From Planctomycetota bacterium (GTDB taxonomy: Bacteria > Planctomycetota > UBA1135 > UBA2386), in the NCBI GenBank assembly GCA_014192625.1, contig BJHM01000001.1:187725-251724 (forward strand): a stretch of DNA of 64,000 bases. Reading direction: 5' to 3'. Shown here piece after piece: positions 2,791 through 50,040 of this stretch. The notes under the pieces were generated by a model. That model did not search any database, was not told the DNA's origin, and was given only the letters and a program-made list of their open reading frames with translations. The stretch's first letter is position 1; every line of letters begins with the position of its first letter. Made by a program: the position numbers and the translations under genes.

Positions 2791-4158
2791 CTACTTGAGG
2801 CCGTACTTCTCAAGCTTCTTGTAGAGATTGCTGCGTTGCAGGTCGATGCGCTCGGCGGTGCGTTTGATGTTGCCGCCGTTTTCGAGCAGCTTGCGCCGGA
2901 TAAACTCTTTTTCGGTCGCAAAGCCGAAGTCTTCCAACTTCTCGAACGCAAACCAATCAGCGGCCCCGCCTGGCAGTGCGGCTGGCACCGGGGTTGATGC
3001 GCCTTGCATGTCGGTGGGGCCGAGTTCTGTGCCATCCGCGAGGATGGCGGCGCCTTCGATCACATTTTTCAGCTGGCGAACATTGCCGGGCCATCGTTGT
3101 TGGCGTAGCCAGTCGAGCGCGCCGCGCGTCAGTTTGCGCTTGCCGATGCTGTTGCGGTGGATCGCCTGTTGCAGGCAGTGCTTTGCAATGAGCTCAATGT
3201 CTTCCAGCCGGTCGCGCAGTGGCGGCAGGTGGATGCGCACCACGTGGAGCCGGTAGTAGAGGTCTTCGCGAAACTCTTTCTTTGCGACCATGGTCAGCAG
3301 ATCCTGATTGGTCGCTGCCAAAACGCGCACGTCGATGGGGATCTCTTTGGTCGAGCCGACGCGCAACACCACGCGCTCTTGCAAAGCGCGCAGCAGCTTG
3401 CCCTGCATGGGCAGCGGCATGTCGCCGACTTCGTCGAGAAAGAGCGTGCCGCCGTGCGCGAGCTCGAAGTGGCCTAGCCGTGCTTGTGTGGCCCCGGTGA
3501 ACGCGCCCTTCTCGTGGCCGAACAGTTCGCTTTCCACTAGATCGGCCGGGATCGCGGCACAATTGACCGCAACAAATGGCCCCGCGCGGCGGCGGCTCTG
3601 CGCGTGCACTTGTCGCGCGACCAGTTCTTTGCCGGTGCCGTTCTCACCAGTGATCAGCACCTGCGCATCGGTTGGCGCGACCTTTTGAATCAGCGCCCGC
3701 ACCGCAATCATCAACGGACTTTCGCCGTGCAGTTCGAACTCGCGCAGCAACTCCAGCTTTAGTTGTTGGTTCTCGGCAGCAAGCGCCGCGCTCTGCAGCG
3801 CATTTTTTATCGAAACCAAGACCCGGTCGGTGCCGAACGGTTTTTGCAGGAAGTCGTAGGCACCCCGTTTGACCGCGAGCACTGCGGTTTCGATGTCGCC
3901 GTGGCCGCTGATCATCACGACTGGGAGGCTGGGGCGCAGTTCCTTCATCCGGCTCAAGACCTCAAGGCCGTCGAGGCCGGGCAACTTCACATCGAGCAAC
4001 ACCGCAGTGACTTCGGGCGCGCGCACTGCCGCTAGGGCGGCCTCTCCGTCGCCAGCCTCGACGGTGGCAAATCCTTCATAACCAAGGGCGAAGGCCAGCT
4101 CCTCACGCACCGCCCGCTGGTCATCGACAATCAGGACCTTGGCGCCAGGCTCGATCAT
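2791..4158 (-). CDS. sigma-54-dependent response regulator (NtrC family: receiver + AAA+ + Fis-type HTH)
   Basis: 455 aa. Receiver domain (VLIVDDQ...[11 protein letters not shown]...KP), Walker [15 protein letters not shown] loop and C-terminal HTH ([27 protein letters not shown]). No adjacent histidine kinase. Confidence 0.9.
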
Positions 4159-15282: not shown

Positions 15283-17013
15283 ATGAATAATCTAAAAATA
15301 CTCAGCGCGTTGCTCGCGACAGCTACTGCCCTTTCGGCGCAGTGCATTGCTCCTTCTTCTCTCAATACAAACCCCCCTGACTTCTCTGCTTCGCACTATG
15401 TTGGCTCGCCGAACCCGCCAGTGGTTCCAGATCCAGGTTTCAGCAGCCTTTGGGACATGACGGTCAACGGTTCGTTGACTATCAGCTCGATTGACAGCTA
15501 TCTATACAACGATGGCGTAAACCCATACCAGGTCGGCAACACGGGGCCCTTCGACTTTTGGATTTGCCCGACTACTCACACCGGCAATGAGCTGATCCCG
15601 GCCAACTGGACGCTAGTCGGCAGTGGCACGTTCTCGGTTGCAGATAGCAGTAGCCACTCGCCAGCCGTTTTCAATGTCCCAGTGGTCCTTACTCCGGGCA
15701 CCTATGGCTGCGCGCTAAACCTAAAAGTAACAACGGTCTCGGTCAATGCGCAGCCGCTAATGCGCTGCAACCCACTAGTCACTTTGGCAAGTGTAGTGCC
15801 AAACACTCCAATGTCGGTGAGTGATCAGTTCATGTCGATCAACAACGAAGTGACGCAGCGAATCGCTTTCGTATCGGGGATTGGCGCGAACCATACGATC
15901 AACATCCAAATCAACTACGCTCCAAATGCTTCGTCAGCATTCTCATCGACGTATGGCGCTGGCTGCTACTTCCGCCCCCAGTCGTTCTATGAGACGTTCC
16001 AATTTGCGGCGCCGATTGACCTGTCTAACTCGGGCATCACGCTAATCAACAACGGCCCTAACTACACTGCGGTCCCATCTTCGCCATTCGGGGCATACGT
16101 CCCTACTACTCTCCCACTGGTCGGTGTTGCTGGCGGCACCATTATGGGTGACGACGATATTACACTTCCGATCACTCTGCCCTTCACGTTTAGTGCTCCG
16201 GGTGGCGTGTCCACGAGCCAAATCCAAATTGGTTCTAATGGCTTTGTGTATCTTTCAGCAACTGCTGGCAGCGCTTTTGGATACTACGACGACATCAACG
16301 GCTTTTTGACCGGAGTACCGCGCATCGCGCTAGGTTTCGGTGACTGGCTGCCGAGCGGAAATGTTGGTGGTAACGGTAACATTTACTACGAGGTTGATCC
16401 GAGCAACGCATTTGTCACGATCACCTATAACGATGTTGCTGAGTGGGTTCCAACACCTCCCACCATCGCTCGTCTAAATGGTCAGATCGTTCTCTACGCC
16501 AGTGGCCAAATCGACCTTCACTGGGGTAGTTGCTCGCAGCAGATTCCAGGTGGCGCTCCAGTGCTTGTGGGTTACAGTAACGGCGACGGCAATGACCCGG
16601 GCTCACGTAATATCAGCGCGGTGCCATTCGTCACCGGCAACGGCGACCTGCCGCCATCTTTGAAAACCGACACCCGTCCAATACTCGGCGGGACTTGGAA
16701 TTTGGTCACCAATCAAGTTGACCCAGCCACGTTCCTCGTCCTGACGATCTTGAGCTTTACCCCGCCACCGCCGGCACCATTCAACAGCCTCGCGCCCTTT
16801 GGCATGCCAGGCTGCACCCAAGAGGTCGGTAGCATTGATGCGACCTTCGTGAGTCTTGCCTTTGCTGGGACGACGTCGGTTGCGATCAGTGCCCCAGCCC
16901 TACCGGGCTTTATCGGCATCCAAGTGCGCGCTCAGGCAGCGCCGTTCACTTCTGGCCTTAATCAGGCAGGCATCGTTACTTCGAATGGCGTTTGCTGTAA
17001 GCTCGGCCTCTGA
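15283..17013 (+). CDS. secreted protein of unknown function; C-terminal ~350 aa module paralogous to the C-terminus of 38626..41919
   Basis: 576 aa with signal peptide MNNLKILSALLATATALSAQC. GC is visibly lower (~54% by hand count) than in neighbouring genes. Colinear similarity to the protease C-terminus (YGAGCYF..SFYETF, SNGFVYL, GSRNIS, GMPGC, SNGV). Confidence 0.8.
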   Translation: MNNLKILSALLATATALSAQCIAPSSLNTNPPDFSASHYVGSPNPPVVPDPGFSSLWDMTVNGSLTISSIDSYLYNDGVNPYQVGNTGPFDFWICPTTHTGNELIPANWTLVGSGTFSVADSSSHSPAVFNVPVVLTPGTYGCALNLKVTTVSVNAQPLMRCNPLVTLASVVPNTPMSVSDQFMSINNEVTQRIAFVSGIGANHTINIQINYAPNASSAFSSTYGAGCYFRPQSFYETFQFAAPIDLSNSGITLINNGPNYTAVPSSPFGAYVPTTLPLVGVAGGTIMGDDDITLPITLPFTFSAPGGVSTSQIQIGSNGFVYLSATAGSAFGYYDDINGFLTGVPRIALGFGDWLPSGNVGGNGNIYYEVDPSNAFVTITYNDVAEWVPTPPTIARLNGQIVLYASGQIDLHWGSCSQQIPGGAPVLVGYSNGDGNDPGSRNISAVPFVTGNGDLPPSLKTDTRPILGGTWNLVTNQVDPATFLVLTILSFTPPPPAPFNSLAPFGMPGCTQEVGSIDATFVSLAFAGTTSVAISAPALPGFIGIQVRAQAAPFTSGLNQAGIVTSNGVCCKLGL

Positions 17014-20852: not shown

Positions 20853-22328
20853 TCAGTCCTTTCGCTCCGGGGCAGTGTCTAGCCGCAGGCACGCTCCATG
20901 CGTTGTTTGCGAAAGCACCTCGGGCAGCGGCGCCTCGATTGGTGGCAGTGGCACGTGGCGATCGTGCAGTTGAACCGAATGGATGTGCCGCGTCTCTCCG
21001 GCGTGGGGGGTGCCGATCGTAATTTGATCGGGGACCCCTAACGGCATTTCGCTGCCGCCTGCGCCAGTGAGCATTCGCACGATCGGCAGATCAATGCGCG
21101 AAGTCTGGCCGATCACGGTGGCAAGTGCGCCAGAGTCCAACTGCACGCGGGTGCCAACCGGAAAGATGCCGAGCGTGCGCACGAACAGTCGCAGCCAGCG
21201 TTGGTCGAAGTCACATGGGTTGCGATGCATCACCGCGAACGCTTCGGCTGGTGCGAGTGCCCGCTTGTATGGGCGGACTGCGGTGAGCGCTTCGAAGGCG
21301 TCGCAGACGCGCACCAACTTGCTGGTGCCGCTCGGCATCACCGGCACCGCCGCTTGCGGATAACCTGCGCCGTCGGCTTGCATGTGGTGGCAGAACGCTG
21401 CGCCGATCGCGCTGGGATCGAGGTCTTGCTGCTCCATCAAGATGTGCGCGCCGAGTCGCGGGTGCTGTGCCATCCACTGCCACTCGGATTCATCGAGCTT
21501 GCCCTCCTTGAACAGGATCTCTTGCGGCACTTTCGATTTGCCAATGTCGTGCAGAAGCGCTGCCGTTCCGACCAGCACCAATTGGTCGCGATCGGCGCCA
21601 GCGGCTCGCGCTACCTGCAAGGCGAGCAGTGCCACGCGGACGGAATGACCAACCGTGAAGCGGTCGACGTTGTCCTGCGCCGCGAGCGAGAGCAGGCCAC
21701 TGGGTTCGGTGTCGAGGCGGAGTAGCACGCGTTCCACGGCGGTGCTGGCTTGATCCACGGCAAGCATCTGATCGCGGTGTGCGCGGGCGTGGTTGTGTTG
21801 CAGCGATGCGGCAAGGTTTTGGTAGTGGTGCAGGTCGTCGATTGCCTCGATCACGGACGCACTGCGATCACTCGGGTCCGCTGGTGTGCGGGAGGTAAGG
21901 CGCACATTGCGGATGCCAAAGGCTTGCAACGCCTGCTCGCGATGGCTGCGGTGCAGCGCCTCAACGTTTTGCGGCAGCAGCAGCAGATCGAACAGCCGCA
22001 ATGCTTCCTCGGCCTTCAGTTCGCTGTCAAACGCGAGTGCCGCCACATCGCGGGCGGCGAGGTCGCGCAGCAGACCTGCGGCCTGCAAGCTTGGCGCCAC
22101 CAGTGGCTTTCCGTCGTGATGGATCCAGTCGTCGCTGAACTGCAACTGCAGGGGCAGTTCGCAGCCGTGTGTATCCGCGGTGCGCAACATGCGGATCAGC
22201 GCGTGCAGCGACACCAAGACGTGTGTGCTGTCGCGGCCATTGAGATCGTAGTCTTGCGCGGCGGTGACCAACGCGTGAGCGAATTGCACGATCGCGGTCG
22301 CCTGCAAATCGGACTGAGTGCGCGTCAT
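20853..22328 (-). CDS. HD-GYP domain protein (putative c-di-GMP phosphodiesterase) with ~230 aa N-terminal domain of unknown function
   Basis: 491 aa. HD motif LLHDIGKSKVP and HHMQADGAGYP (HD-GYP signature). The start ATG shares 1 nt with the upstream stop (TAATG). Confidence 0.85.
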   Translation of the reverse strand: MTRTQSDLQATAIVQFAHALVTAAQDYDLNGRDSTHVLVSLHALIRMLRTADTHGCELPLQLQFSDDWIHHDGKPLVAPSLQAAGLLRDLAARDVAALAFDSELKAEEALRLFDLLLLPQNVEALHRSHREQALQAFGIRNVRLTSRTPADPSDRSASVIEAIDDLHHYQNLAASLQHNHARAHRDQMLAVDQASTAVERVLLRLDTEPSGLLSLAAQDNVDRFTVGHSVRVALLALQVARAAGADRDQLVLVGTAALLHDIGKSKVPQEILFKEGKLDESEWQWMAQHPRLGAHILMEQQDLDPSAIGAAFCHHMQADGAGYPQAAVPVMPSGTSKLVRVCDAFEALTAVRPYKRALAPAEAFAVMHRNPCDFDQRWLRLFVRTLGIFPVGTRVQLDSGALATVIGQTSRIDLPIVRMLTGAGGSEMPLGVPDQITIGTPHAGETRHIHSVQLHDRHVPLPPIEAPLPEVLSQTTHGACLRLDTAPERKD

Positions 22329-35166: not shown

Positions 35167-35366
35167 GTAAGCGGGGTTCCTTTGGGGCGCTGCGTGCGGG
35201 CATTTGCGGTGTCCTAAGGGGTTCTCCTTGCGGGTTCCCTGCCGCATAACCCCAACGGTTCGGGGGCTGCTCGCCGGTGGCGGCAAAGCCATCGCCAGCA
35301 GCTTGCCATAGTCTGCAACGCTGTTCGATCCGGTCGCCGTCATGGCTATGCTGCGCGCAACGCCGC

Positions 35367-37532
35367 ATGAGCCAATCATTCCTCGACGATCTGAACGATG
35401 CGCAGCGTGCCGCGGTGCTGCATGGCGAAGGCCCGCTCATGGTGCTGGCTGGTGCTGGCTCTGGCAAGACGCGGGTGGTGACTCGCCGCATTGCACGATT
35501 GCTCGATCAGGGCGTTCGCTCAAGTCAGATCCTAGCGTTGACGTTCACCAACAAAGCCGCTGGCGAGATGGCTAATCGCGTGCAGGCGCTGTTTGGTGGT
35601 TACGTGCGGGTTGCGACCTTCCATTCGGCTTGCGCGCGCTTTTTGCGGAGCGACGCGACATTGCTCGGCTACCCAGCCAACTTCTCGATCTACGACACCT
35701 ACGACCGTGACTCGCTGATCAAATCGTTGCTCGAGGATGTCGGCCTGACTTCAACCAAGGTCAAGCCAGCGGCGGTCGGCAGCATGGTCTCGCGGCTCAA
35801 GAACTGCGCGACCAAGCCCGGCGATTCTGTGCTCGGTGACAACGACATCGCGCGAGCCGTCGAGCGGATTTGGCAGCGTTACGAAGAGCGAATGCAGCAG
35901 CTGGGCGCGATGGATTTTGATGATCTGCTGCTGTGCTTCCTGCGCCTTTTGCGGGAACACCCGCAAAAGGCCGAGAGCTACCGCGAACGGTTCCCATGGC
36001 TACTCGTAGACGAGTTCCAGGACACCAATCGCGTGCAATACGACATCCTGCGCGCGCTCAGCAAGCAAGACGGCAACATCTGCGTTGTCGGTGACCCGGA
36101 TCAGTCGATCTATGGCTTTCGTGGCGCCGAAGTGCGCAACATCCTCGATTTTGAGGATCACTATCCCGGCACGACGGTGGTGCGCCTCGAACAGAACTAC
36201 CGTAGCTCGGCCAATATTCTTTCCGCCGCCGAGTCGGTCATCGAGAACAACAAACTAAGAAAGCAGAAGCGGCTGCGGACCGACAACGCGCCCGGCGACA
36301 AGTTGCTGCTGTTCCACGCCGGTGGGCCTAGCGAAGAGGCGGATGCGATTGCGGATCGCGTGCTCGGGCTCTCCGGCGAGGGCGCTGCGCTTGATCAGAT
36401 CGCGATTTTCTATCGGGCGCACTACCTCTCGCGCTCCATCGAGCAGTCCCTCAAAGACAAGGGCGTGCCGTATGAGATTGTCGGCGGCCTGACGTTCTTC
36501 GAGCGCCGTGAGATCAAGGACCTGCTCGCCTACCTGCGCGTGTTGGTCAATCCGCTCGATGATGTCAGCATGCAGCGCATCATCAATGTGCCGCCACGGG
36601 GACTTGGCAAGACTTCGCTCGACAAGTTGAAGGACGCGGCTGCTGCCGAAGGCATGTCGTTGCGCGAAGGCGTTTCATTGTCGGAGTTGCACGTTGGCCT
36701 CTCGGCGAAATCGCGCAAGGCGCTCCTGCAGCTGGGCGAGGCGCTCGATAAGGCGCAGGCAGCGTCTTCGCGCGGCGCGCACCAGGCCCTCAAGGTGATC
36801 CTCGAAGGCACTGGCTACATCCAGCATGCGACCGGCATTGGTGACCCGGATGACATTGCGCGGGAAGAGAACATCCAAGAGTTGGTGTCTGACACGATCT
36901 CGTTCGACGAAAAGAATGGCGAAGGGCTTGCCGGTTATCTCCAGCACGTCTCATTGCTGACCTCGGCAGATCGCAACGGCGGCAGTGGTCCAGCAGTGCA
37001 GATGATGAGCGTGCACGCGGCGAAGGGCCTTGAGTTTGATCACGTCTTCATTGCTGGACTCGAAGACTCGGTGTTTCCAAGTATGCGCGCAGCGGCGGCC
37101 AAGGACGGGATCGAAGAAGAGCGCCGCTTGATGTATGTCGCGTTGACTCGTGCGCGCCGCACGTTGTTCTTGAGTCACGCGCGCGAACGCATGGTCAATG
37201 GCTCCATGGAACGGATGCAGCCGTCGCGGTTCTTGAAGGAGATCCCCAAGGGGCTGCTGGCGGATCACGAAGCTGTATGGCATCGATTTTCCAGAGAAGA
37301 GGATCGCGCCGACTGGAGTCCCGACCCTGACCCTGACCCGGACGCGGTGATTCAGGTCAGCGTCGGCGCGCGGGTGCGGCACGACATGTACGGCGCGGGC
37401 ACCATTCGCCGCGTCAGTGGGATGGGGATCATGTCGCGTGCGGTGGTGCGCTTTGACGATGGCATCGATCGTGAACTCATCCTCGAGTATGCGGGATTGC
37501 AGCAGCTTGGTGACGGAGACTTTGACCTGTGA
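35367..37532 (+). CDS. pcrA: ATP-dependent DNA helicase, UvrD/PcrA family
   Basis: Trimmed to ATG 35367. SF1 motifs AGAGSGKT, TFTNKAA, LVDEFQDTN, VGDPDQSIYGFRGA, LEQNYRS, VHAAKGLEFDHVF and YVALTRAR. C-terminal Tudor-like tail. Confidence 0.9.
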   Translation: MSQSFLDDLNDAQRAAVLHGEGPLMVLAGAGSGKTRVVTRRIARLLDQGVRSSQILALTFTNKAAGEMANRVQALFGGYVRVATFHSACARFLRSDATLLGYPANFSIYDTYDRDSLIKSLLEDVGLTSTKVKPAAVGSMVSRLKNCATKPGDSVLGDNDIARAVERIWQRYEERMQQLGAMDFDDLLLCFLRLLREHPQKAESYRERFPWLLVDEFQDTNRVQYDILRALSKQDGNICVVGDPDQSIYGFRGAEVRNILDFEDHYPGTTVVRLEQNYRSSANILSAAESVIENNKLRKQKRLRTDNAPGDKLLLFHAGGPSEEADAIADRVLGLSGEGAALDQIAIFYRAHYLSRSIEQSLKDKGVPYEIVGGLTFFERREIKDLLAYLRVLVNPLDDVSMQRIINVPPRGLGKTSLDKLKDAAAAEGMSLREGVSLSELHVGLSAKSRKALLQLGEALDKAQAASSRGAHQALKVILEGTGYIQHATGIGDPDDIAREENIQELVSDTISFDEKNGEGLAGYLQHVSLLTSADRNGGSGPAVQMMSVHAAKGLEFDHVFIAGLEDSVFPSMRAAAAKDGIEEERRLMYVALTRARRTLFLSHARERMVNGSMERMQPSRFLKEIPKGLLADHEAVWHRFSREEDRADWSPDPDPDPDAVIQVSVGARVRHDMYGAGTIRRVSGMGIMSRAVVRFDDGIDRELILEYAGLQQLGDGDFDL

Positions 37533-38434
37533 CCGAGCGTGCAGCATTGCAAGCAGAGTTCTCTGCGTTGCTATTGCGCGCGGTTTCGCTGGCCGACCGG
37601 GCACTGCTCGATGACTGGCGGGCAATCCTCGATGCGCTGCCAGCAGCGGCAGTCCCGGAGCTCGCTGCCGATGATCTGTGGCAAGGGCTGTTGGGCAACT
37701 GCGCGGCGATGCTGCAACTCCGGACACGAATCCAAAAGTTTGCCCCTGCCGACGCGCCCGTCTTGATCACCGGCGAGAGTGGCACTGGCAAGGAGAAGGT
37801 CGCGCGCGCATTGCATGATCTCAGTCGCCGTAAAGCACAGCCGATGGTTGCGGAGAACTGCGCTGCGATCCCTGACACGCTGCTGGAGTCGGTGCTCTTT
37901 GGTCATGTGAAGGGCGCGTTCACCGGTGCCGTGAAAGACCACCCCGGGCACTTTTTGTCGGCTGATCATGGCACTTTGTTCCTCGACGAAATCGGCGACA
38001 TGAAGTTGCCGATGCAGGTGAAGCTTTTGCGAGCGCTGCAAGAAAGCGAAGTGCGGCCGGTGGGTGGCAGTAAGGTCAGGAAGGTGGATGTGCGCGTGAT
38101 CGCAGCGACCAACTCGGACCTGGAAAACGCAGTCAAGCAGGGCCGCTTCCGAGAAGACCTATATTTTCGCTTGAACGTGTTGCGAATCGGTCTGCCGCCG
38201 CTGCGTGACCGTGGGAATGACATCGTGTTGCTGGCCCGCAGCTTTCTGGCCGAAGCCAGTGCGAGGAGTGGCCGTAGGCTCACGCTATCGCCGGAAGCCG
38301 AGGCCGTGATCGTGGCGCTGCGCTGGCCCGGCAATGTCCGTCAGTTGCAGAATGAAATGCAGCGACTTGCGGCATTGTGCACTGGCAGCGAGGCGCGAGT
38401 GCGCGATATCTCCAGCGAAGCGCTCGGGCGATAG
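37529..38434 (+). CDS. sigma-54 interaction (AAA+) domain protein lacking both receiver and DNA-binding domains
   Basis: 301 aa. GTG start overlaps the pcrA stop (GTGA). GESGTGKE, GAFTGA, GTLFLDEIG, VRVIAATN and WPGNVRQL are all present. There are only ~57 aa before the AAA+ core, and the protein ends ~25 aa after it without an HTH. Confidence 0.85.
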   Translation: MTERAALQAEFSALLLRAVSLADRALLDDWRAILDALPAAAVPELAADDLWQGLLGNCAAMLQLRTRIQKFAPADAPVLITGESGTGKEKVARALHDLSRRKAQPMVAENCAAIPDTLLESVLFGHVKGAFTGAVKDHPGHFLSADHGTLFLDEIGDMKLPMQVKLLRALQESEVRPVGGSKVRKVDVRVIAATNSDLENAVKQGRFREDLYFRLNVLRIGLPPLRDRGNDIVLLARSFLAEASARSGRRLTLSPEAEAVIVALRWPGNVRQLQNEMQRLAALCTGSEARVRDISSEALGR

Positions 38435-38481
38435 CCGTAGGTTCAGTGTGGTCCATTGGTTTGCGGGGGGGCGGAAAATCG

Positions 38482-38508
38482 TGGAACCCTACCTGGCTAT
38501 GGACCGTC
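38482..38508 (+). promoter_or_regulatory. candidate ECF-sigma-type promoter, TGGAACC-N15-CCGTC
   Basis: The sequence gTGGAACCctacctggctatggaCCGTCtc ends 117 nt before ATG 38626. It has the same 7-mer and 5-mer as 15226..15251. Confidence 0.5.
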
Positions 38509-38625
38509 TCAGCCCTCGCTGGGCATGGAAAAGCTGCGCCGCCCAGTTCTAATCTTCTACAAGCAATCGGCAGGGCCTATCTAGGGTCTGACGGATTGCT
38601 TTTACAGTCCTTTACGAGGGTTCGA

Positions 38626-41600
38626 ATGTCCAGTTACAGTCGCCATGCTGGTGGAGTTGGCGGTTTTTTTTTGGCAGTAAGCATCGCCCTCGGGCAGAAA
38701 CCTAGCCAATCGATTGGTATCCAATCGGCGGAGGATTTTGCGCGGCAGCAGATTGCGCTCGGCATTCCAGATCCTCGATTTGACGCAAGGAGTCAGGCGG
38801 AGAATCCCGCCTGGCAGCGATTCCTGGCAACCGCCGGCGGACAGTGGATCAGTCATTGGTCGCCCGCCACGAATACGCCAACTGCCGTCTTCGGTACTGG
38901 CCTTTCGATCGCAGATTGGCGCGGCAACTCGCAAGCTGAGGCAAGTAGGCACGCACGGCAACTCTTGGTCGACCAGCAGGAGTTGCTCGGCTTGGGCACC
39001 AGTGAGTTCCGTGAAGCGATCGCCGCGCGCATCGGCGGCATGTGGTCGTTCGTTTATGATCAGTATTACCGCGGCCTCCCAGTGCTAGCTGGTCGCGCCG
39101 ATGTGCGCGTGCACATGACGGGCAAGGTGTCGATGTTTGGTAGCGCGGCACTGCCGATTGCCGCCGACTTCGTGATCGTGCCCTCGATTGATGAGCTCAA
39201 CGCAGCACGCATCAGCTGGCAGGCCCTTGGCCAGCAGCCGCGCGCAAAGCAGCCCAACGACAAGCGGCCGCTGCGGCTGGTGATCTATGGCGACCTAAAA
39301 GCGCCTGCCTTGACTAAGGCTCAGCTTGCTTATGAGGTGCCGGTGTCGGCGGTCGATTTCGAAGGTCGCGGCCCCATTGGGCGCTACTTGATCGATGCGC
39401 ACAGCGGCGAAGTGCTGACCTACATCAATGACAAGCACGAGTGTGGCATTCCGGGCTGCACCTACCCGCCCAATGGCTTCACGAATGGCGGCACGGATGA
39501 AAAGCCCCCGGCCCTGATTGGCGCAGCACTACCACCAACCACCGGCATCGTGAGAGGCTTTACGCGCACCGGCAACGTCGCATCAGACGCGCTCGTCAAC
39601 GTGCCACTCGCGGGCGTTGAATTGTCGATCCCCGGCGTCGGTATCGTGGTGACAGATGCGAACGGCAGCTTCGCGGCGACGATCGCGAGCCCCGTCGTTG
39701 TGGTCGCCACGCTGGATGGCATACACAATCAATTGATCCTTGGCGCAACTGCCCCGACGGTAACGTTCACGCTCACTCCGGGTGTGCCAGCAGTCGTGCA
39801 GTTTCTGACTAGCCTTGCATCACCTGAGGCTGCCGCGCACACGTCGACTTACTGGTGGGTCAATAAAGTCAACGAGTTCAGCCGCTCGATCCTGGGCAAC
39901 TCAGCGCAGCTCAATATTGCGGACGCCGTCTTGCCGTCGGTCAACCTCGCGTCGACCTGCAACGCCTACTACACCAATAACACGATCAACTTTTATGCGA
40001 CCGGCGGCGGCTGTGCGAACACTGCGTTTTCGACTGTCGTCGCCCACGAATGGGGACACGGTCTTGACGAGCGCTACGGTGGCATTTCGCAAGTGAATGG
40101 GCTTAGCGAAGCCTGGGGCGACATCCTCGCGATGTATTTGACCGACACGCCGATCGTCGGCGATGGCTTCTTCACTACGGGCGGCTTCATTCGCACTGGT
40201 AATAATACGCGGCAGTATCCAAGCGGCACCGGCGTGCACCAGCAGGGCGAGTCCTTCATGGGCTTTGCCTGGAATCTGCGCGATGGACTTGCCGTCTCGC
40301 TTGGCAGTCGCGCGCTAGCAATAGCGCTTTCCAACACTCTTGTAGTTGGCTCGATCGCGGCCAATGCCCCGGATCAATATGGGGCAGTCACGCAGATATT
40401 CCTCGCCGATGACAACGACGGCAACCTACTGAACGGCACGCCTCACTCGAGCCAGTTGATCTTTGCCTGCAACCTGCACTCACTGCCAAACCCAGTCAAC
40501 CCGCCGACCTCTCCCGCCAACGACGAGTGCCTCAACGCGATCTCAATCACGAGTGGCGTGAATGGCCCCTACACGAATTCGTTTTCGACCACTTCGTCGG
40601 CATGGCCATGTGCATTAGGTAGCGCCGACGTCTGGTTCAGATACGTGCCGGTCAGCTCAGGAACGGTCACTGTCGACATCTGCGGCGTGGCGACTTTTGA
40701 TACTGCGCTTGAGATCCTTTTCGGCTCGTGCGGCGCGCTCACTTCGCTGTCCTGCAACGACGACTCCTGCACTCTTCAGTCCAGCGTGACCGCGCCGATT
40801 ACCGCTGGCACTGTCTACTTCGTTCGGGTCGGCGGCTACAGCGGCGCGATGGGCCCGTTCAGCATCAATCTGACTGGTCCTCCGGGCGGCGGCGGAACTG
40901 TGCCAGCTGCCACGACCAACTACGGCATTGGTTGCTACATCGATTCGCGCTCGTTTTACGAGAGCTTCCCAACGGCGGGAGCGTTTGACTTGAGCAACTT
41001 GAACATGCGACTGGCCAGCTCCGGCGGTCGCTACATCGCATCGGCGGCTGGCAACTACGTTGCGCCAACAGGAGCGGCGACAGTGCTTGCGCTCACGGAC
41101 GACTCGGAGGTCAGCGTCGCACTCCTTGGCGCCTTCCCGTATCCGGGCGGCACTACGTCATCGTTGGTGGTCTGCTCCAACGGTTTCGTTTCGGTTGCCA
41201 CCGGCAACGGTTCCGGTTTTACACCGAATGCGTTCCAGTGGCTCAGTAGCGCGCAGATGCGCTGGGGCGATTGGCACGACTATAACCCATCCTCGGGCGT
41301 GGGCCGCGTCAAGTTTGAGCAGGTCGGCTCGGTGGCTTTCGTGACATGGGATGGTGTTGTCGACTTTGGCGCTACGACGGTCAACACGTGGCAACTGCAG
41401 TTCAATCTGAGCAACGGGAGCGTCACCTACGCATGGAGCACGATGAGTAACGGTGGCAACCCGCACCTCGTCGGCTTTGCCGCCGGTGGGGCATCTAATG
41501 ACCTCGGCAGTCGCGATATCTCGACTTCGCTTCTGGGTGGATTTTCGACGGGCGCTGCCAACTCGGTGGGGCTTCTGCAAGCGAGCTCGTTGCCGCAAAT

Positions 41601-41919
41601 CGGCACGACACTCACGATCACGACCAGTGGCTACCCAAGTGGTGCGGCGCTCGGCGTTGGCTTCCTCAGCTTTACCCGTCACGACCCTGGTCTGGATTTG
41701 ACGTCACTCGGCATGCCGAACTGCTTTCAGTATGTCGGGCTCGATATCTCCTACGTCATGATTGCCAGCTTAGGTCAGTCGACGTTTACGCTGACGATCC
41801 CTAACAATCCGGCGCTGGCTGGGTTGGCCTTCCAGAGTCAGGCATTCGCTTTGGTTCCGGGCATAAACAGTCAGGGCGCGATCTCGTCAAACGGCGTGCG
41901 CCTCGTGATCGGCACTTAG
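38626..41919 (+). CDS. secreted multidomain M4-like (thermolysin-type) zinc metalloprotease
   Basis: ORF 38377.. trimmed to ATG 38626 (GAGGG 6 nt upstream), giving a signal-like N-terminus. FTP/PepSY-like propeptide, HEWGH...GLSEAWGDI (HExxH plus a downstream Glu ligand pattern), Cys-framed domain NDECLNA...CNDDSC...VRVGGY, then the 332-aa module shared with 15283..17013. Confidence 0.8.
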   Translation: MSSYSRHAGGVGGFFLAVSIALGQKPSQSIGIQSAEDFARQQIALGIPDPRFDARSQAENPAWQRFLATAGGQWISHWSPATNTPTAVFGTGLSIADWRGNSQAEASRHARQLLVDQQELLGLGTSEFREAIAARIGGMWSFVYDQYYRGLPVLAGRADVRVHMTGKVSMFGSAALPIAADFVIVPSIDELNAARISWQALGQQPRAKQPNDKRPLRLVIYGDLKAPALTKAQLAYEVPVSAVDFEGRGPIGRYLIDAHSGEVLTYINDKHECGIPGCTYPPNGFTNGGTDEKPPALIGAALPPTTGIVRGFTRTGNVASDALVNVPLAGVELSIPGVGIVVTDANGSFAATIASPVVVVATLDGIHNQLILGATAPTVTFTLTPGVPAVVQFLTSLASPEAAAHTSTYWWVNKVNEFSRSILGNSAQLNIADAVLPSVNLASTCNAYYTNNTINFYATGGGCANTAFSTVVAHEWGHGLDERYGGISQVNGLSEAWGDILAMYLTDTPIVGDGFFTTGGFIRTGNNTRQYPSGTGVHQQGESFMGFAWNLRDGLAVSLGSRALAIALSNTLVVGSIAANAPDQYGAVTQIFLADDNDGNLLNGTPHSSQLIFACNLHSLPNPVNPPTSPANDECLNAISITSGVNGPYTNSFSTTSSAWPCALGSADVWFRYVPVSSGTVTVDICGVATFDTALEILFGSCGALTSLSCNDDSCTLQSSVTAPITAGTVYFVRVGGYSGAMGPFSINLTGPPGGGGTVPAATTNYGIGCYIDSRSFYESFPTAGAFDLSNLNMRLASSGGRYIASAAGNYVAPTGAATVLALTDDSEVSVALLGAFPYPGGTTSSLVVCSNGFVSVATGNGSGFTPNAFQWLSSAQMRWGDWHDYNPSSGVGRVKFEQVGSVAFVTWDGVVDFGATTVNTWQLQFNLSNGSVTYAWSTMSNGGNPHLVGFAAGGASNDLGSRDISTSLLGGFSTGAANSVGLLQASSLPQIGTTLTITTSGYPSGAALGVGFLSFTRHDPGLDLTSLGMPNCFQYVGLDISYVMIASLGQSTFTLTIPNNPALAGLAFQSQAFALVPGINSQGAISSNGVRLVIGT

Positions 41920-42007: not shown

Positions 42008-42307
42008 ATGTTTTCGCATGTCGTGGTGTTTTGGACTGATCCCAAAAACCCGCTCGCGGCCGACGCGTTGCTGCATGGCGCACGGCGATACTTGCAGCCC
42101 ATTCCGGGCGTGCTGAGTTTTCACATTGGCAAGATGGTCGGCAGTGACCGCCCGGTTGTCGAGCAGTCCTATCAAGTCGCGCTCAACCTGATTTTCGCCG
42201 ACCAGCAGGCGCAGGACACTTATCAGGGGCACCCTTTGCACCTTGAGTTTGTCGAGCGCGCATTCCTGCCCAACTGCGTGAAGTGCGTCGTCTACGACTT
42301 CGCATGA
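42008..42307 (+). CDS. Dabb (stress-responsive alpha/beta-barrel) domain protein
   Basis: 99 aa. MFSHVVVFW...L..IPGV..F..G...... and a C-terminal HP.H..F pattern. Confidence 0.75.
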   Translation: MFSHVVVFWTDPKNPLAADALLHGARRYLQPIPGVLSFHIGKMVGSDRPVVEQSYQVALNLIFADQQAQDTYQGHPLHLEFVERAFLPNCVKCVVYDFA

Positions 42308-42459: not shown

Positions 42460-45420
42460 ATGCTCACGCTCCAGATTCAGGATCGAGGTCCGTCGTCCGT
42501 TTGTTGTATTGAGATTATGCCCGCAGTTGTGGGTAGTGCAGAAGGGGTAGCCGTGCAGTTGCTTGCAAGTGGGGTGTTGCCGCGGCATGCGCGCTTTGAG
42601 GTGGTGGATGGAGTGCCGCAGGTGGTCGCGCTCGGCGGTAGCACGGTGCTGGTTAATGGTCGAACGGTCCGTCGCGCGCCGTTGCTTTCTGGTGATCGGA
42701 TTGAGGTTGGCGCAGCGGTCATGGTGGTCCGCGTGCAGGCGGCGCCTGCCAAGCTCTTCACATCGCGCGAAGCTCCGTTGCCGGTTCGCAATAGTAAGCA
42801 GCTGCGCCGCCGTGGGAATGCCGCCAAGCTCGGGCTCGCGCTCACTGCCGCAATTGCAGTGGTGGCGATCTTCGTGATGCCCAAGCTGGGGTTTGGTCGG
42901 CCAGAAGAGTTTGCCGAGATGGAACAGCTGCGCCGCGCTGGCAGCTTCGAACTTGCGCGTGAGGTAGCTGACAAGTTGCGGAATGAATGGGTCGTCGATG
43001 ATCCTCTGCGAGCAGCCGAACTCGATGCTTCTTTGGTGCGGCTTCAGACGCTTGAGAACGCTGTGGTCGAGCGCCGCACGAAGCTGCGCGAGTATGCAGT
43101 CGGACACAGCGACGCGCAGTTGCGGTTCGTGTTGCAGCGCGAACAGGAACAGACCGACAATGAGACCATGCGACTGGCAGCAGGGCTGGTTCTCAGGTCG
43201 CTAACGGAGGTGGTAGCTGGTGTTGACCGCAACCCGGTCGCAAAAAATCCAGCAGGGCCTTTCGTCGCGGTGAACAAGGCGCCAACCGAGCAACTGCCAA
43301 CCGCGCCCGCAGTCTCCGCAGCGGCTGATTCGCCCGCAGTTCTCCCAGTTCCCGATTCGCTCAAATCGTCGGTAGGTATCGATGTCGGCTTTTTGCTGTC
43401 GGAGGCGGACCGCTTTGCCAGCCAAGGCCAGATCCGCTTTGCGATCGAGACTCTGCGCGCTGGGATTGCATCGGCAAACGAGGTCGATACCAGCGCGCTG
43501 CTTGCACGGATGACCGCGGTGACGGATCAGGGCATGAAGCTTTGCGACCAGGTCGTTGCGGCGGCCCGCGCGCAGGCTGAGACGGGGCAAATCGCGGCAG
43601 CGATCACGACGCTCGAAGCCGCGGTGCAGCAGTTGCCATCTGGTGGAGCCTTTGCGCCGCTGGGCCAGACCTACCTGCAGCTCCGTAACGAACAAACGTT
43701 GGCCGCGCGCGCCGCCAGAAGTGGCATCAATAAGCCCGGCCTCGCGGTGGTGGCTTCTGAGCCAGTGCGTGGTGTGACGTTGCAGGCATTGGCTTTGCAG
43801 CTCGATAAGATTCAGGCCGCCGAAGCGGTGGGTGACTTTCCGTTGTGCGAGTCGTTGCTGCGCGCCGCCGCAGAGATGGTGAAAGAGCGCGACGCAGATT
43901 ATTCGGCACGCATGCTCGCGCGCGCGACCGAGTATGCCTTGCTGCAAGACCTGCATGTCGCGGTTGCGGCGCAGTTGCAGCAGGGGGCGAAGTTTCCTGT
44001 CACGCTGCAAAGTGGCATTGGCGGAGAACTGCATGCTGCCAATGGCCCGGCGCTGATGGTTGATGTTCTTGGTGTAGATCAGCGCGTGATGTGGCTCGGC
44101 CTCAAGCCGAGCAGCGTCGCGTTGATTGCGATCAGCGGCAAGCTCACGGGCAGGGCCGCGCTGGGTGCTGCTGCCTTGCTGTATCGCGCTACGGAACCCA
44201 GCGAAGCGGAATCGGTGTTGGCAAAAGCGCTGCAGGCAGATGCCGGGCTGAAGGAGAGTGTCGATCGCACGATTGCCAGCGGTCGTGGCGAGTCCTTCGA
44301 TCCGGGCGGCTATACGCTCGGCAAGGATGGCAAGTTTAGTTCGTCGAGTCAGGTGGAAGCAGAGCAAGCGGCACAAAGGGTATTGCTCCGCCTCGATGCG
44401 ACTTTGCGCGGCAAGGACACGCGCGCGCGCGAGCAGTTTACCGCCGACCTCATGCGCCTTCCCAACGGCGCACACGGCCTGGTGGGGCGGGCCTTTGGCA
44501 GTCAGATCAATAAACTGGTCGACCAGATCAATGCCTTGCCGCTGCGCAAGCAGCTTCTGCGCGTGGCTGCGCAGCGCAAGTTGATTGACGATGCGCGCAC
44601 CTTTGCCAAGGAGCTGATTTACGACGAGGCGAAGTATTTTTATCCCTACAAGCCGCCGCAGGTCTCCAGTGACCGCTACGCCGAGTATGTAAGGGTGCAG
44701 GCCGAAGTTGACGCCCGGGTAGCCGCGGTTCGCGAACTGTGGGATGACGCTCGCTTCAACCTGCCGATTCCGGCAAGGGTAAAAGAGGACCTGCAGCGCA
44801 TCGATTGGCTTGCATCCACCATGCAAGGGCTTGGCATCGCCGAGGCATTATCACTCGTCAACGTAGGTTGGGCGCGCGCATTGCCGGCAGCGGTGCCGGT
44901 CACCCTGAAGAACTATTGCAGTACCATTTTGGAACGCGAAGAGTTGGACCTCTGGCAGCGCATCGAGGCATACAACGAAGTGCTCCGCAAGACTGAGAAG
45001 AGCATCTCGCCGGGTGAGTTCGAATTGCTGGCGATTACCAACGAATACCGGGGGATGTTTCGCCATCAGCCGCTCGCTTTGCAGATCAACTGCTGTGCGG
45101 CTGCCCATGGTCACGCCGATGAGATGTCGAAGCTCGGTTACTTCTCGCACTTTTCGCCAACTATGGGCCGCCGCTCGCCGTCCGATCGCATGAAGCTCGC
45201 CGGCTACCCGGGCGGCGCGAGTGAGAACATCGCGCTCGTTGATGGTGCCCTTTCTGCGCACGTCGCATGGCTCCATTCTTCAGGACACCATCGCAATTTG
45301 CTTGAGGCGGGGCACACAGAGATCGGCATCGGTGGTATCGGACGCTATTGGGTGCAAAACTTTGGTGTTGGTCGCACGTATCAGGAGCACCCGGCATGGC
45401 GTGCACTGGGCAAAAATTAA
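42460..45420 (+). CDS. FHA domain - single TM - long helical region - C-terminal CAP/SCP (PR-1-like) domain protein
   Basis: ATG 42460 is preferred (MLTLQIQD...). FHA-like N-terminus (VVGSAEGVAVQL...VSRxHARFEV...VLVNGR...L..GD.IEVG), TM helix LGLALTAAIAVVAIFVM, C-terminal CAP block (NEYR...LAL...AAAHGHADEM...YFSHFSP...GENIA...WLHSSGHHRNLL...EIGIG). Confidence 0.75.
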   Translation: MLTLQIQDRGPSSVCCIEIMPAVVGSAEGVAVQLLASGVLPRHARFEVVDGVPQVVALGGSTVLVNGRTVRRAPLLSGDRIEVGAAVMVVRVQAAPAKLFTSREAPLPVRNSKQLRRRGNAAKLGLALTAAIAVVAIFVMPKLGFGRPEEFAEMEQLRRAGSFELAREVADKLRNEWVVDDPLRAAELDASLVRLQTLENAVVERRTKLREYAVGHSDAQLRFVLQREQEQTDNETMRLAAGLVLRSLTEVVAGVDRNPVAKNPAGPFVAVNKAPTEQLPTAPAVSAAADSPAVLPVPDSLKSSVGIDVGFLLSEADRFASQGQIRFAIETLRAGIASANEVDTSALLARMTAVTDQGMKLCDQVVAAARAQAETGQIAAAITTLEAAVQQLPSGGAFAPLGQTYLQLRNEQTLAARAARSGINKPGLAVVASEPVRGVTLQALALQLDKIQAAEAVGDFPLCESLLRAAAEMVKERDADYSARMLARATEYALLQDLHVAVAAQLQQGAKFPVTLQSGIGGELHAANGPALMVDVLGVDQRVMWLGLKPSSVALIAISGKLTGRAALGAAALLYRATEPSEAESVLAKALQADAGLKESVDRTIASGRGESFDPGGYTLGKDGKFSSSSQVEAEQAAQRVLLRLDATLRGKDTRAREQFTADLMRLPNGAHGLVGRAFGSQINKLVDQINALPLRKQLLRVAAQRKLIDDARTFAKELIYDEAKYFYPYKPPQVSSDRYAEYVRVQAEVDARVAAVRELWDDARFNLPIPARVKEDLQRIDWLASTMQGLGIAEALSLVNVGWARALPAAVPVTLKNYCSTILEREELDLWQRIEAYNEVLRKTEKSISPGEFELLAITNEYRGMFRHQPLALQINCCAAAHGHADEMSKLGYFSHFSPTMGRRSPSDRMKLAGYPGGASENIALVDGALSAHVAWLHSSGHHRNLLEAGHTEIGIGGIGRYWVQNFGVGRTYQEHPAWRALGKN

Positions 45421-47824: not shown

Positions 47825-49381
47825 TCAGCTCAGTTTTTCACTGATCGTCTTCGCCTGCAGGAACTGCAGCAGGTAGTCGGGGCCGCCGGCCTTGCTGTCC
47901 GTGCCCGACATGTTGAAGCCGCCAAATGGATGCGCACCGACGAGTGCGCCAGTGCACTTGCGGTTGATGTAAAAGTTGCCGACGTGAAAGCGGCGGCGCG
48001 CGATGGCCTTGTGCTGTTCGTTCGTGGTGAACAAAGAGCCAGTAAGGCCGTATTCAGTGTTGTTGGCGACGGTGAGGCCCTCCTCAAAGTCTTTCACCCG
48101 AATCAGTGCCAGCACTGGGCCGAAGATCTCTTCCAGTGAGATTTTGGCATCGGGTGCTACGTCGCCGATCACGGTCGGTCTCACGTAGTAGCCGGACTTC
48201 GGGCCCGTCGTGCCGCCGGCGAGCAACGTGCCTTCCTGCTTGCCAGTCTCGATGTATTCGAGGGTCTTCTTCTGTGCGGCAGCATCGACCATCGGGCCCA
48301 TATAGTTGGTGCGTTGCTTTGGATGGCCCATCTGGATCGCCTCGACCTTGGGGATCAGTCTCTTGACGAACTCGTCGTAGATGTCCTGGTGCAGAATCGC
48401 GCGGCTGCAAGCCGAGCACTTTTGGCCTTGGTAGCCAAAAGCCGAGGCGAACACTGCATCGACCGCAGCTTCGAGGTTGCAATCCTTGTCGACCAGGATG
48501 CTGTCTTTGCCACCCATCTCAGCGATCAGGCGCTTCATCCAGATCTGGCCGGGTTTTGTCTTGGACGATTGGTCGAAGATCCAGAGGCCGACATCGCGAC
48601 TGCCGGTGAAGGAGATAAAGCGCGTGAGCTTGTGCTGGACGAGGGCGCTACCGATCTTCGAGCCAGGGCCGGTGATCAGGTTGAGCACATTCCTCGGTAG
48701 TCCGCACTCGTGCATCAAGTTGACAAACATTCCGGCAACCAGAGGCGATTGGCTTGCTGGTTTCAACACGATGGTGTTGCCGGCGAGCATCGCTGCGGAT
48801 GCCATGCCGGCCATGATTGCGAGTGGGAAGTTCCACGGCGGGATGATCGCGCCCACGCCGAGCGGGATATAGATCATCTGATTGCGTTCGCCTATGACTG
48901 GCGTGACTGGTTGCGGCTTTCCCATCCGCAGCATCTGGCCCGCGTAGTAGTCGAGGAAGTCGATTGCCTCGGCGGTATCGCCGTCGGCCTCGGCCCAAGA
49001 CTTGCCGACTTCAAAGCACAGCATCGCCGAGAAATCGTGCTTGCGCTCCCGCATTTTCTGGGCGGCGGCGAAGAAGATCTTCGCGCGCTCTGCAACCGGT
49101 GTGTCGGCCCACTCCGGGAACGCTGAGTGGGCGGCTTCGACTGCTCGGTTGGCATCGGCCTCGCTCAGTAGCGGGAAGGTGCCGATGACGCGCGTGATCT
49201 CGCCAGGATCATGCGTGGTGAAGGTCGCAACACTGCGAACCTCCTTGCCGTCGATCCAGCACGGCCAAGACTTGCCGAGCACCGACGATTCGATCTTCGT
49301 CAATGAAAGGGCAAAGGCCTGTTGTTGTTCGAGACTGGAGAAGTCGGTGAAAGGCTCGTTGCTGAAGTCAGGCAAATGCAT
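47825..49381 (-). CDS. pruA: L-glutamate gamma-semialdehyde (1-pyrroline-5-carboxylate) dehydrogenase
   Basis: Trimmed to ATG 49381 (MHLPDFSNEPFTDF). ALDH blocks FTGS, EMGGKDSILVD and GYQGQKCSACSRAILH match the RocA/PruA type. 518 aa. Confidence 0.85.
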   Translation of the reverse strand: MHLPDFSNEPFTDFSSLEQQQAFALSLTKIESSVLGKSWPCWIDGKEVRSVATFTTHDPGEITRVIGTFPLLSEADANRAVEAAHSAFPEWADTPVAERAKIFFAAAQKMRERKHDFSAMLCFEVGKSWAEADGDTAEAIDFLDYYAGQMLRMGKPQPVTPVIGERNQMIYIPLGVGAIIPPWNFPLAIMAGMASAAMLAGNTIVLKPASQSPLVAGMFVNLMHECGLPRNVLNLITGPGSKIGSALVQHKLTRFISFTGSRDVGLWIFDQSSKTKPGQIWMKRLIAEMGGKDSILVDKDCNLEAAVDAVFASAFGYQGQKCSACSRAILHQDIYDEFVKRLIPKVEAIQMGHPKQRTNYMGPMVDAAAQKKTLEYIETGKQEGTLLAGGTTGPKSGYYVRPTVIGDVAPDAKISLEEIFGPVLALIRVKDFEEGLTVANNTEYGLTGSLFTTNEQHKAIARRRFHVGNFYINRKCTGALVGAHPFGGFNMSGTDSKAGGPDYLLQFLQAKTISEKLS

Positions 49382-49571
49382 GGTTCGATTCGCGAGCGAC
49401 GAATGTATGCCGCGGCCGCAATGCGAGCCACAAAAAGCACGCGGCCCACTGGAAGGTTTCCAGTGAGCCACGTTTTAGGATCAGGGAACTGGGTTGCCGT
49501 AGTCGCGGCAACCCTGCAACAAGAGTTTGGTTCGCCAACCGGTCTGTGACCGTTGGGCTAAATGCGGTTTG

Positions 49572-49757: not shown

Positions 49758-50040
49758 AGGACCTGGTTGTTAGCCATGAGGCTTGCGGGCGCTCCGCGAG
49801 CTCTTGAATAAAGCAACTACCTTGCCAAGTGCGGTGTTGCGCAGCGCTACTGCGGAGCTTCACTCCGTGTCATCGCGGGAGCGGACAGGAGAGATTCTGG
49901 GGGACAGTTTTTGGCTCGGCTCCGTGGTCGCAGAAGCAAGACCTGGGGCCGCGCACTGGCTACTGGTTTTGCTGTGAAGTGTCGGTGCGACTGCGGAAGC
50001 GCCTTTGTCGCAATAATGCGACGGGTCGCCAGCGTGCGAC

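Follow-up and report, generated by a model that had tools for sequence, protein, structure and literature searches.

In bacterial transcription, sigma-54 activators are the standard example of dependence on enhancers and gating by signals. Their hexameric AAA+ ring remodels the closed sigma-54 complex via GAFTGA loops and ATP hydrolysis, and their helix-turn-helix (HTH) domain merely raises the local concentration at enhancers (PMC7175178). Activators that lack both a sensory and a DNA-binding domain have seldom been described: Francke et al. list a "type Ic" class in which FleT is named as an example without both domains (PMC3162934), and in the 2020 review by Gao et al. FleT is the only known activator of this kind (PMC7175178). 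Here we analyze a 64,000-nucleotide stretch of a Planctomycetota bacterium (assembly GCA_014192625.1, contig BJHM01000001.1, positions 187,725-251,724 of the forward strand; hereafter the window) that encodes a 301-residue, AAA+-only sigma-54 activator. The activator gene begins within the stop codon region of a gene for a PcrA/UvrD-type superfamily 1 (SF1) helicase, and we found that this family of activators is consistently tied to the housekeeping helicase. It appears to be a second, independent activator family with a FleT-like minimal architecture, and one that is much more widespread.

FleT of Rhodobacter (Cereibacter) sphaeroides likewise consists essentially of the AAA+ central domain, with no regulatory or DNA-binding domain, but it belongs to an alphaproteobacterium, where it regulates flagella together with FleQ and has its gene amid flagellar genes. 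Unlike FleT, the window family is planctomycetal, always stands behind pcrA, carries a conserved N-terminal hairpin and lies beside (FHA-)GAF regulators in a tree of AAA+ cores; because of these differences, it likely arose independently of FleT. The group 5 activators FlgR (Helicobacter pylori) and CtcC (Chlamydia) also have no DNA-binding domain and activate sigma-54 without an enhancer, but both keep a phospho-accepting receiver under a histidine kinase, and the window activator has no receiver. Planctomycetota share the PVC superphylum with the Chlamydiae. The group 4 activators PspF and HrpR/HrpS resemble the window protein in having no regulatory domain in cis, theirs being controlled in trans (PMC7175178), but they retain enhancer binding and, at the C-terminus, an HTH, whereas the window protein ends just past its AAA+ lid. 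The same domain content is found in the engineered proteins DctD250 and PspF 1-275, and DctD250, a constitutive and promiscuous activator that acts from solution, is the best functional analogue of the window protein (PMC3844500). These two are laboratory truncations, whereas the window protein represents a natural family under purifying selection that has a hairpin and a fixed operon partner.

A minimal sigma-54 activator with a predicted N-terminal hairpin

The 301-residue product contains a full Sigma54_activat domain (PF00158; E-value 7.5e-70, profile positions 2-167 of 168) followed by an AAA+ lid (Table 1). The sequence motifs of a PF00158 activator are all there, namely the Walker A and Walker B motifs, the arginine fingers, sensor II and the GAFTGA loop, and the FLDEIG and WPGNVRQL sequences are present as well. 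The complete activator core and the individual motifs reported in a preliminary description of the locus are thereby borne out. That description had also held that the protein lacks a receiver or sensor domain and an HTH, and this agrees with our Pfam scan of the product, which returned no Response_reg, GAF, PAS or HTH_8 domain. The 54 residues preceding the core contain no Pfam or NCBIfam domain, and since the protein stops three residues after the lid (the lid ends at residue 298 and the protein at 301), there is no room for an HTH. With neither an N-terminal receiver or sensor domain nor a C-terminal HTH, the protein has the "type Ic, both" architecture. It falls outside group 5 for want of a Response_reg domain and outside group 4 for want of an HTH. 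The NCBIfam models for NorR, NifA, NtrC, RtcR, PspF, FlgR and others match the core only and all score far under their cut-offs; the FlgR model, for example, aligns to residues 67-294 with 222.7 bits against a cut-off of 750.

The AlphaFold2 model of the whole activator has a predicted local distance difference test (pLDDT) score of 89.8. Its core fold matches those of LuxO, FleQ, FlrC, ZraR, NtrC1 and PspF, with superpositions of 1.4-2.0 Å, and the target-normalised Foldseek template-modelling scores are 0.91-0.95 against the LuxO, FleQ, FlrC and ZraR cores. The alignment to the solved activators starts only at residue 49, and so the N-terminal two-helix hairpin has no counterpart among the solved structures. 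The hairpin is predicted with a block-mean pLDDT of approximately 81-94 over residues 1-30, and the family alignment shows conservation of at least 90% for three of its residues (F11, L14 and L15). It is joined to the core by a linker that varies in length and sequence across the family and in which residues 40-44 have a pLDDT below 50. According to the model, the confidently predicted hairpin is the only family-specific addition to the activator.

A planctomycetal family encoded behind pcrA

The best 120 matches to the activator among 5.8 billion protein clusters are 294-330 amino acids long and 64-99% identical, with one outlier of 414 amino acids. Mostly covered over near full length, they contain the AAA+ domain and lid only, with no receiver or HTH. 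The 414-residue outlier cluster reflects an over-called start, and the other longer entries have either over-called starts or longer Ala/Pro linkers; the N-terminal extension of P0012 is likewise an over-called start. The named clusters among these 120 originate from metagenome-assembled genomes of Planctomycetota, and the activator clade is known from metagenome-assembled genomes only. At 30 loci the activator open reading frames (ORFs) are 295-327 amino acids long with the stop codon shortly past the lid, again with no HTH or receiver, and a profile search of 1.84 billion representatives yielded six deep-branching short relatives of approximately 295-330 amino acids.

In an alignment of 52 family members, which are 63-80% identical to the window protein, 95 columns are invariant. 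The invariant positions include Walker A, Walker B, G129, F131-T132-G133-A134 of the GAFTGA loop, the arginine fingers, sensor II and W51, while position 130 of the loop is A or S. The GESGTGKE, FLDEIG, R/N/T and WPGNVRQL motifs are invariant or nearly so across the 52 sequences. The invariance of the catalytic and GAFTGA residues therefore argues for selection for sigma-54 contact and ATP hydrolysis. Viewed alone, a 301-residue activator missing both terminal domains resembles a fragment, and it could have been the remnant of a full-length regulator after truncation or decay, or a product of faulty gene calling, without any role by itself. We see virtually no chance of this and rejected the truncation and pseudogene readings on the family-wide length, the conserved motifs and the monophyly of the family: the same length and architecture recur in the best 120 clusters and at more than 35 loci, the invariant columns take in all the catalytic motifs, and the identical protein, with the same neighbours, is found on eight contigs from several sequencing runs. 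The conservation data thus already refute such a reading. The activator is a real, conserved and unusual feature.

We examined the origin of the family by neighbour joining of 162 AAA+ cores; in the resulting tree, the 27 family sequences form one exclusive clade. Beyond the core match, the family proteins extend by only 1-13 residues at the C-terminus, as against 67-101 residues in complete generic and sister-group ORFs. Members of the adjacent group in the tree have an N-terminal extension of at least approximately 250 residues and a C-terminal extension of 68-101 residues; all five sister-group members scanned with Pfam are GAF-AAA+-HTH_8 proteins, and three of the five also have an N-terminal FHA domain. 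Hence, the ancestors of the family would have been (FHA-)GAF-AAA+-HTH regulators that lost the sensor as well as the DNA-binding domain, a double loss that we only infer because the tree is unbootstrapped.

The representative library also contains proteins of other layouts. Two or three tandem activator AAA+ cores occur in some proteins, such as P0122 (942 amino acids) and P0123 (1027 amino acids), and many matches of 1200-1890 amino acids have a single activator core close to the C-terminus.

The gene upstream of the activator encodes a protein with UvrD-helicase (E-value 1.4e-80) and UvrD_C (E-value 3.7e-71) domains, in keeping with its earlier identification as an SF1 helicase. Among the NCBIfam models, PcrA (TIGR01073) fits it best with 709.9 bits, which is under the equivalog cut-off of 911, and gene callers give a product of 721-723 amino acids on same-species contigs. 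PcrA lies directly upstream of the activator on the same strand in all 35 assessable loci, the window included, where an assessable locus is one with enough upstream sequence to see the neighbour; in a control set of generic activator loci it does so in only 1 of 134. Sampled at one genome per GTDB species, 21 of 21 family loci have PcrA directly upstream, with 45-70% identity to the window PcrA over the aligned part. The arrangement recurs at five JGI metagenome loci of the family (in one of which, L091, the PcrA is only 43% identical), on the contigs carrying the proteins P0109 and P0094, and next to the six deep-branching relatives, whose PcrA proteins are 40-44% identical in the five alignable loci. 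Both other flanks vary, and pcrA is the only universal neighbour of the activator. In sub-clade B, an SSF symporter gene lies upstream and a gene for a B12/radical-SAM enzyme downstream of the pcrA-activator pair, and the remaining neighbours of the pair in sub-clades A and B share no functional theme. Across the loci sampled, coupling to pcrA is a deep, clade-wide trait of an uncultured Planctomycetota group and not a local oddity. The preliminary description, which called pcrA an unusual operon partner, under-rated two points: activators without both domains have very rarely been described (PMC7175178), and the coupling runs through the whole clade.

The single generic locus with an upstream PcrA is L116 (L116:645-4987, metagenome contig Ga0163150_10014095). 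Directly behind its PcrA-like gene (39.6% identity), and on the same strand, this locus has a full-length FHA-GAF-AAA+-HTH_8 activator that groups within the sister group of the short family. The arrangement may show how pcrA and the activator were linked ancestrally, or it may be a coincidence.

Gene junction and expression signals

The GTG start of the activator overlaps the helicase stop codon, exactly as first described (Table 1). A 4-nucleotide NTGA overlap of this type is present at 24-25 of the 34 assessable junctions (23 of 30 scripted junctions, plus L091). The remaining junctions are at -11, -7, -1 and +11/12 nucleotides, and all but a single outlier at +48 are within 12 nucleotides. 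A Shine-Dalgarno-like core, GGAG or GAGGA, is located inside the end of pcrA at -16 to -7 in 19 of 23 loci. At the other end of the pair, 21 of 24 loci have a TATGCT hexamer in the 110 nucleotides before the estimated start of pcrA, in most cases at -16 to -20, against a background rate of 0.006 per 110 nucleotides. This hexamer is probably the sigma-70-type -10 box of a pcrA-activator operon with a very short leader. SOS control of pcrA was considered and rejected, as the upstream regions of the gene in 25 loci contain no LexA box of any of five types.

We scanned for sigma-54 promoters by requiring the -24/-12 GG and GC in register and a match to the consensus at 8 or more of its 11 positions. 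The scan found no site at 38405-38834, downstream of the activator, which agrees with the earlier statement that the intergenic region after the gene has no -24/-12 promoter. Neither the region before pcrA nor the one after the activator has a conserved -24/-12 element, and none precedes a further downstream gene that encodes an FHA/CAP protein; sigma-54 autoregulation or an adjacent sigma-54 target was therefore rejected. One -24/-12-like site in the window, TGGCTATGAGATTGCT at 35058, is not conserved, and near-consensus matches over the whole window are at chance (59 found against 48.7 expected). With a -10-like box and no sigma-54 promoter on either side, the pair looks like a housekeeping operon.

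A scan downstream of 37894 gave no terminator-like site, and the RNA fold after the activator is not significant (z-score -0.54); a stem-loop followed by UUUU at approximately 38563-38608 is borderline. The only Rfam matches over the window are two tRNAs.

Three one-mismatch matches to TGGCAC-N5-TTGCW occur elsewhere in the window. The one at 49812-49827 (-), TGGCAAGGTAGTTGCT, is intergenic, lies upstream of an aldehyde-dehydrogenase gene (47825-49471, -) and could be a genuine sigma-54 promoter, whereas those at 22084-22099 (-) and 15786-15801 (-) are intragenic. Two observations concern the flanks of the pair in relatives. In one locus (L010:6990-7090), tandem copies of a GC-rich unit of approximately 14 nucleotides (CCGGGATCGGGCGT / CCGGGACTGGGCCT) take up the whole stretch from the activator stop to the FHA/CAP gene. 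In sub-clade B (for example L011:3540-3620, L012, L013, L016, L088 and L090), conserved AGCGAACCG and GATCCAGT elements are present upstream of pcrA and adjoin the start of the SSF symporter gene, which is divergently transcribed.

Table 1. Features of the pcrA-activator locus and two further genes in the window. TM, transmembrane.
Feature	Position	Strand	Remarks
pcrA/uvrD-type SF1 helicase gene	35367..37532	+	721 amino acids from ATG 35367; ORF open from 35277
TATGCT, sigma-70-type -10-like hexamer	35347..35352	+	14 nucleotides upstream of pcrA ATG; putative operon promoter
GGAG, Shine-Dalgarno-like core	37515..37518	+	In last pcrA codons, 14 nucleotides before activator start codon
GTGA start/stop overlap	37529..37532	+	Activator GTG, pcrA TGA (37530-37532); from sequence
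AAA+-only sigma-54 activator gene	37529..38434	+	301 amino acids; GTG start; enhancer-binding-protein family without receiver, sensor or DNA-binding domain
N-terminal two-helix hairpin, residues 3-36	37535..37636	+	AlphaFold2 helices 3-20 and 24-36; family-specific
Ala/Pro-rich flexible linker, residues 37-50	37637..37678	+	Ends directly before invariant W51
Sigma-54 interaction AAA+ domain, residues 55-220	37691..38188	+	PF00158; contains Walker A, GAFTGA and Walker B FLDEIG
Walker A GESGTGKE	37772-37795	+	Motif search in sequence
GAFTGA sigma-54 contact loop (L1)	37913-37930	+	Motif search in sequence
AAA+ lid domain, residues 226-298	38204..38422	+	AAA_lid_14, PF25601, E-value 3.2e-19 (Pfam); includes a sensor motif
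Intergenic region after activator	38435..38625	+	No sigma-54 promoter, no convincing terminator
Full-length NtrC-type activator gene	2791..4158	-	Response_reg + Sigma54_activat + HTH_8 (Pfam); GAFTGA at 3490-3507
FHA-TM-CAP protein gene	42460..45420	+	986 amino acids; Pfam FHA and CAP; hydrophobic segment at residues ~122-143

Proposed action of the activator and its possible partners

We consider it reasonably probable that the family is a natural, DNA-binding-independent sigma-54 activator whose amount is set by the expression of pcrA. Each member would be a functional activator made of an AAA+ motor and a 35-residue N-terminal helical hairpin. It would be co-transcribed with pcrA from the sigma-70-type promoter, and its translation would be coupled to the end of pcrA via the Shine-Dalgarno core inside pcrA and the NTGA overlap. 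With a shared promoter and translational coupling, the activator should be made whenever PcrA is made and roughly in proportion to it. Lacking an HTH, it could not be targeted by an enhancer; it would assemble into hexamers whose GAFTGA loops contact region I of sigma-54 directly from solution, and ATP hydrolysis would turn closed complexes into open ones at any sigma-54 promoter. Our reasons for this reading are that the HTH serves only to raise local concentration and that engineered, AAA+-only DctD250 fires many Salmonella sigma-54 promoters that belong to other activators, without their enhancers, although at the glnKamtB promoter it is approximately ten-fold weaker than activated NtrC (PMC3844500). 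The sequences themselves show the domain content, the conserved motifs, an architecture common to the family, a conserved operon geometry and no sigma-54 promoter beside the pair; the ATPase and activator activities, the constitutive expression and the action from solution are what we infer. The invariant FTGA motif and the full-length activator in the window suggest that rpoN is present in the source genome, and in the planctomycete R. baltica rpoN is both present and translated (PMC2754498).

Several observations count against action from solution. No rpoN gene was found in the 64-kb window, and no RpoN box in the window or in the other loci examined; nor was a sigma-54 target promoter found, the near-consensus matches across the window being at chance. 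An ungated, promiscuous activator would be expected to cross-activate every sigma-54 promoter in a cell that also has sensor-controlled activators such as the 2791-4158 protein. Some control may therefore be hidden here, perhaps in the hairpin, a partner protein or a low dosage. The junction with pcrA also seems to be conserved more strictly than simple shared expression requires. If the activator does act from solution, natural genomes tolerate a DctD250-like global sigma-54 activator beside gated ones, which raises the question of how cross-activation is avoided.

The strictness of the junction leads to the possibility that PcrA is itself the missing regulatory or targeting domain of the activator, supplied in trans and bound probably through the N-terminal hairpin. 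PcrA might keep the activator inactive for as long as the helicase itself is not engaged on DNA or on a stalled RNA polymerase, or the RNA-polymerase-binding Tudor domain of PcrA might deliver the activator to the sigma-54 holoenzyme, and in either variant replication or repair stress would be tied to sigma-54 transcription or to the clearance of closed complexes. The two proteins would then form a physical module, with the helicase, which binds RNA polymerase and works where transcription complexes stall or conflict, as sensor or targeting domain, or with the activator firing and clearing long-lived sigma-54 closed complexes that obstruct replication. Both the partnership and the module are unlikely in our estimate, although PcrA is the prime candidate for a partner: pcrA remains the sole universal neighbour down to 40% PcrA identity while the flanks change, translational coupling favours production at a fixed ratio, and the conserved hairpin is free as a candidate interface. 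The genes for the trans regulators of PspF and HrpR/HrpS adjoin the respective activator genes. By analogy, the control of PspF and HrpR/S, which have no regulatory domain, by proteins that bind in trans (PMC7175178) would provide a precedent. PcrA proteins of related loci carry the Tudor domain (PF21196), which L091 and L178 show more clearly, but the match is weak in the window PcrA (E-value 0.0012, 19.1 bits against a cut-off of 23.9). Against a partnership, a chimeric query joining the PcrA C-terminus to the activator recovered no genuine fusion: its only match, P0121 (L167, ENA ERZ25072999 ctg292551_3x_l), is an apparent 432-residue fusion that is most likely an insertion/deletion artefact, because it comes from a long-read contig of 3x coverage on which pcrA is split into two calls. 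Moreover, overlapping gene pairs can persist just because the overlap is hard to break, and in the literature searched we found no paper linking PcrA/UvrD to sigma-54 activators, nor are helicases mentioned in a survey from 2025 that covers sigma-54 regulons of Planctomycetota among others. A true partnership would connect replication, repair and the management of conflicts with RNA polymerase to sigma-54 transcription, and a true module would be a previously unknown sigma-54 input and a new kind of PcrA/UvrD partner.

Control could instead come from other activators or from a membrane protein. Like FleT, which has the same architecture without both domains (PMC3162934; PMC7175178) and works with FleQ in Rhodobacter sphaeroides, the window protein might have little activity alone and enter mixed hexamers with DNA-binding activators, thereby shifting the promoter choice or output of its partners. 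A candidate partner is at hand, since the window encodes at least one full-length activator, the NtrC-type regulator noted in the preliminary description, which we find on the minus strand; and hetero-oligomerisation of paralogous activators is documented in the literature. We nevertheless hold this to be quite unlikely: none of 35 loci shows a genetic link between the family and a full-length activator, the AAA+ core of the NtrC-like protein ranks only 79th of 135 non-family cores in closeness to the activator, and the (FHA-)GAF sister group points to a likely origin independent of FleT. The same sister group brings in the FHA/CAP protein, whose cytoplasmic FHA domain might stand in for the FHA domain that the FHA-GAF-AAA+-HTH regulators hold in cis, so that a membrane protein with an external CAP domain would act as a sensor in trans by binding or sequestering the activator. 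Homologues of this protein, approximately 560-1000 amino acids long with a C-terminal CAP/SCP domain and, in the longer copies, an N-terminal FHA domain, are encoded directly downstream of the activator in 11 loci, deep branches included (L007, L008, L009, L010, L020, L025, L026, L089, L167, L174 and L178). In L178 the gene overlaps the activator stop by 4 nucleotides, in the window it is two genes away, and in the window copy a single hydrophobic segment follows the FHA domain. It is possible that the protein is a component associated with the activator. As its sensor, however, we think it improbable. The gene is the downstream neighbour in sub-clade A but is absent from the flanks, examined over up to 6 kb, in sub-clade B, a large group of approximately 13 species; it has its own sigma-70-like TAGGAT/TAGTAT -10 box, no -24/-12 site and a gap to the activator of usually 80-280 nucleotides; and no conserved threonine stands out in the activator N-terminus as an FHA ligand.

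In related species, the FHA/CAP gene comes straight after the activator. The two intervening genes in the window encode a 1097-residue protein (38626-41919, +), which has a weak match to a galactose-binding-like domain associated with the type IX secretion system, and a 99-residue Dabb protein (42008-42307, +).

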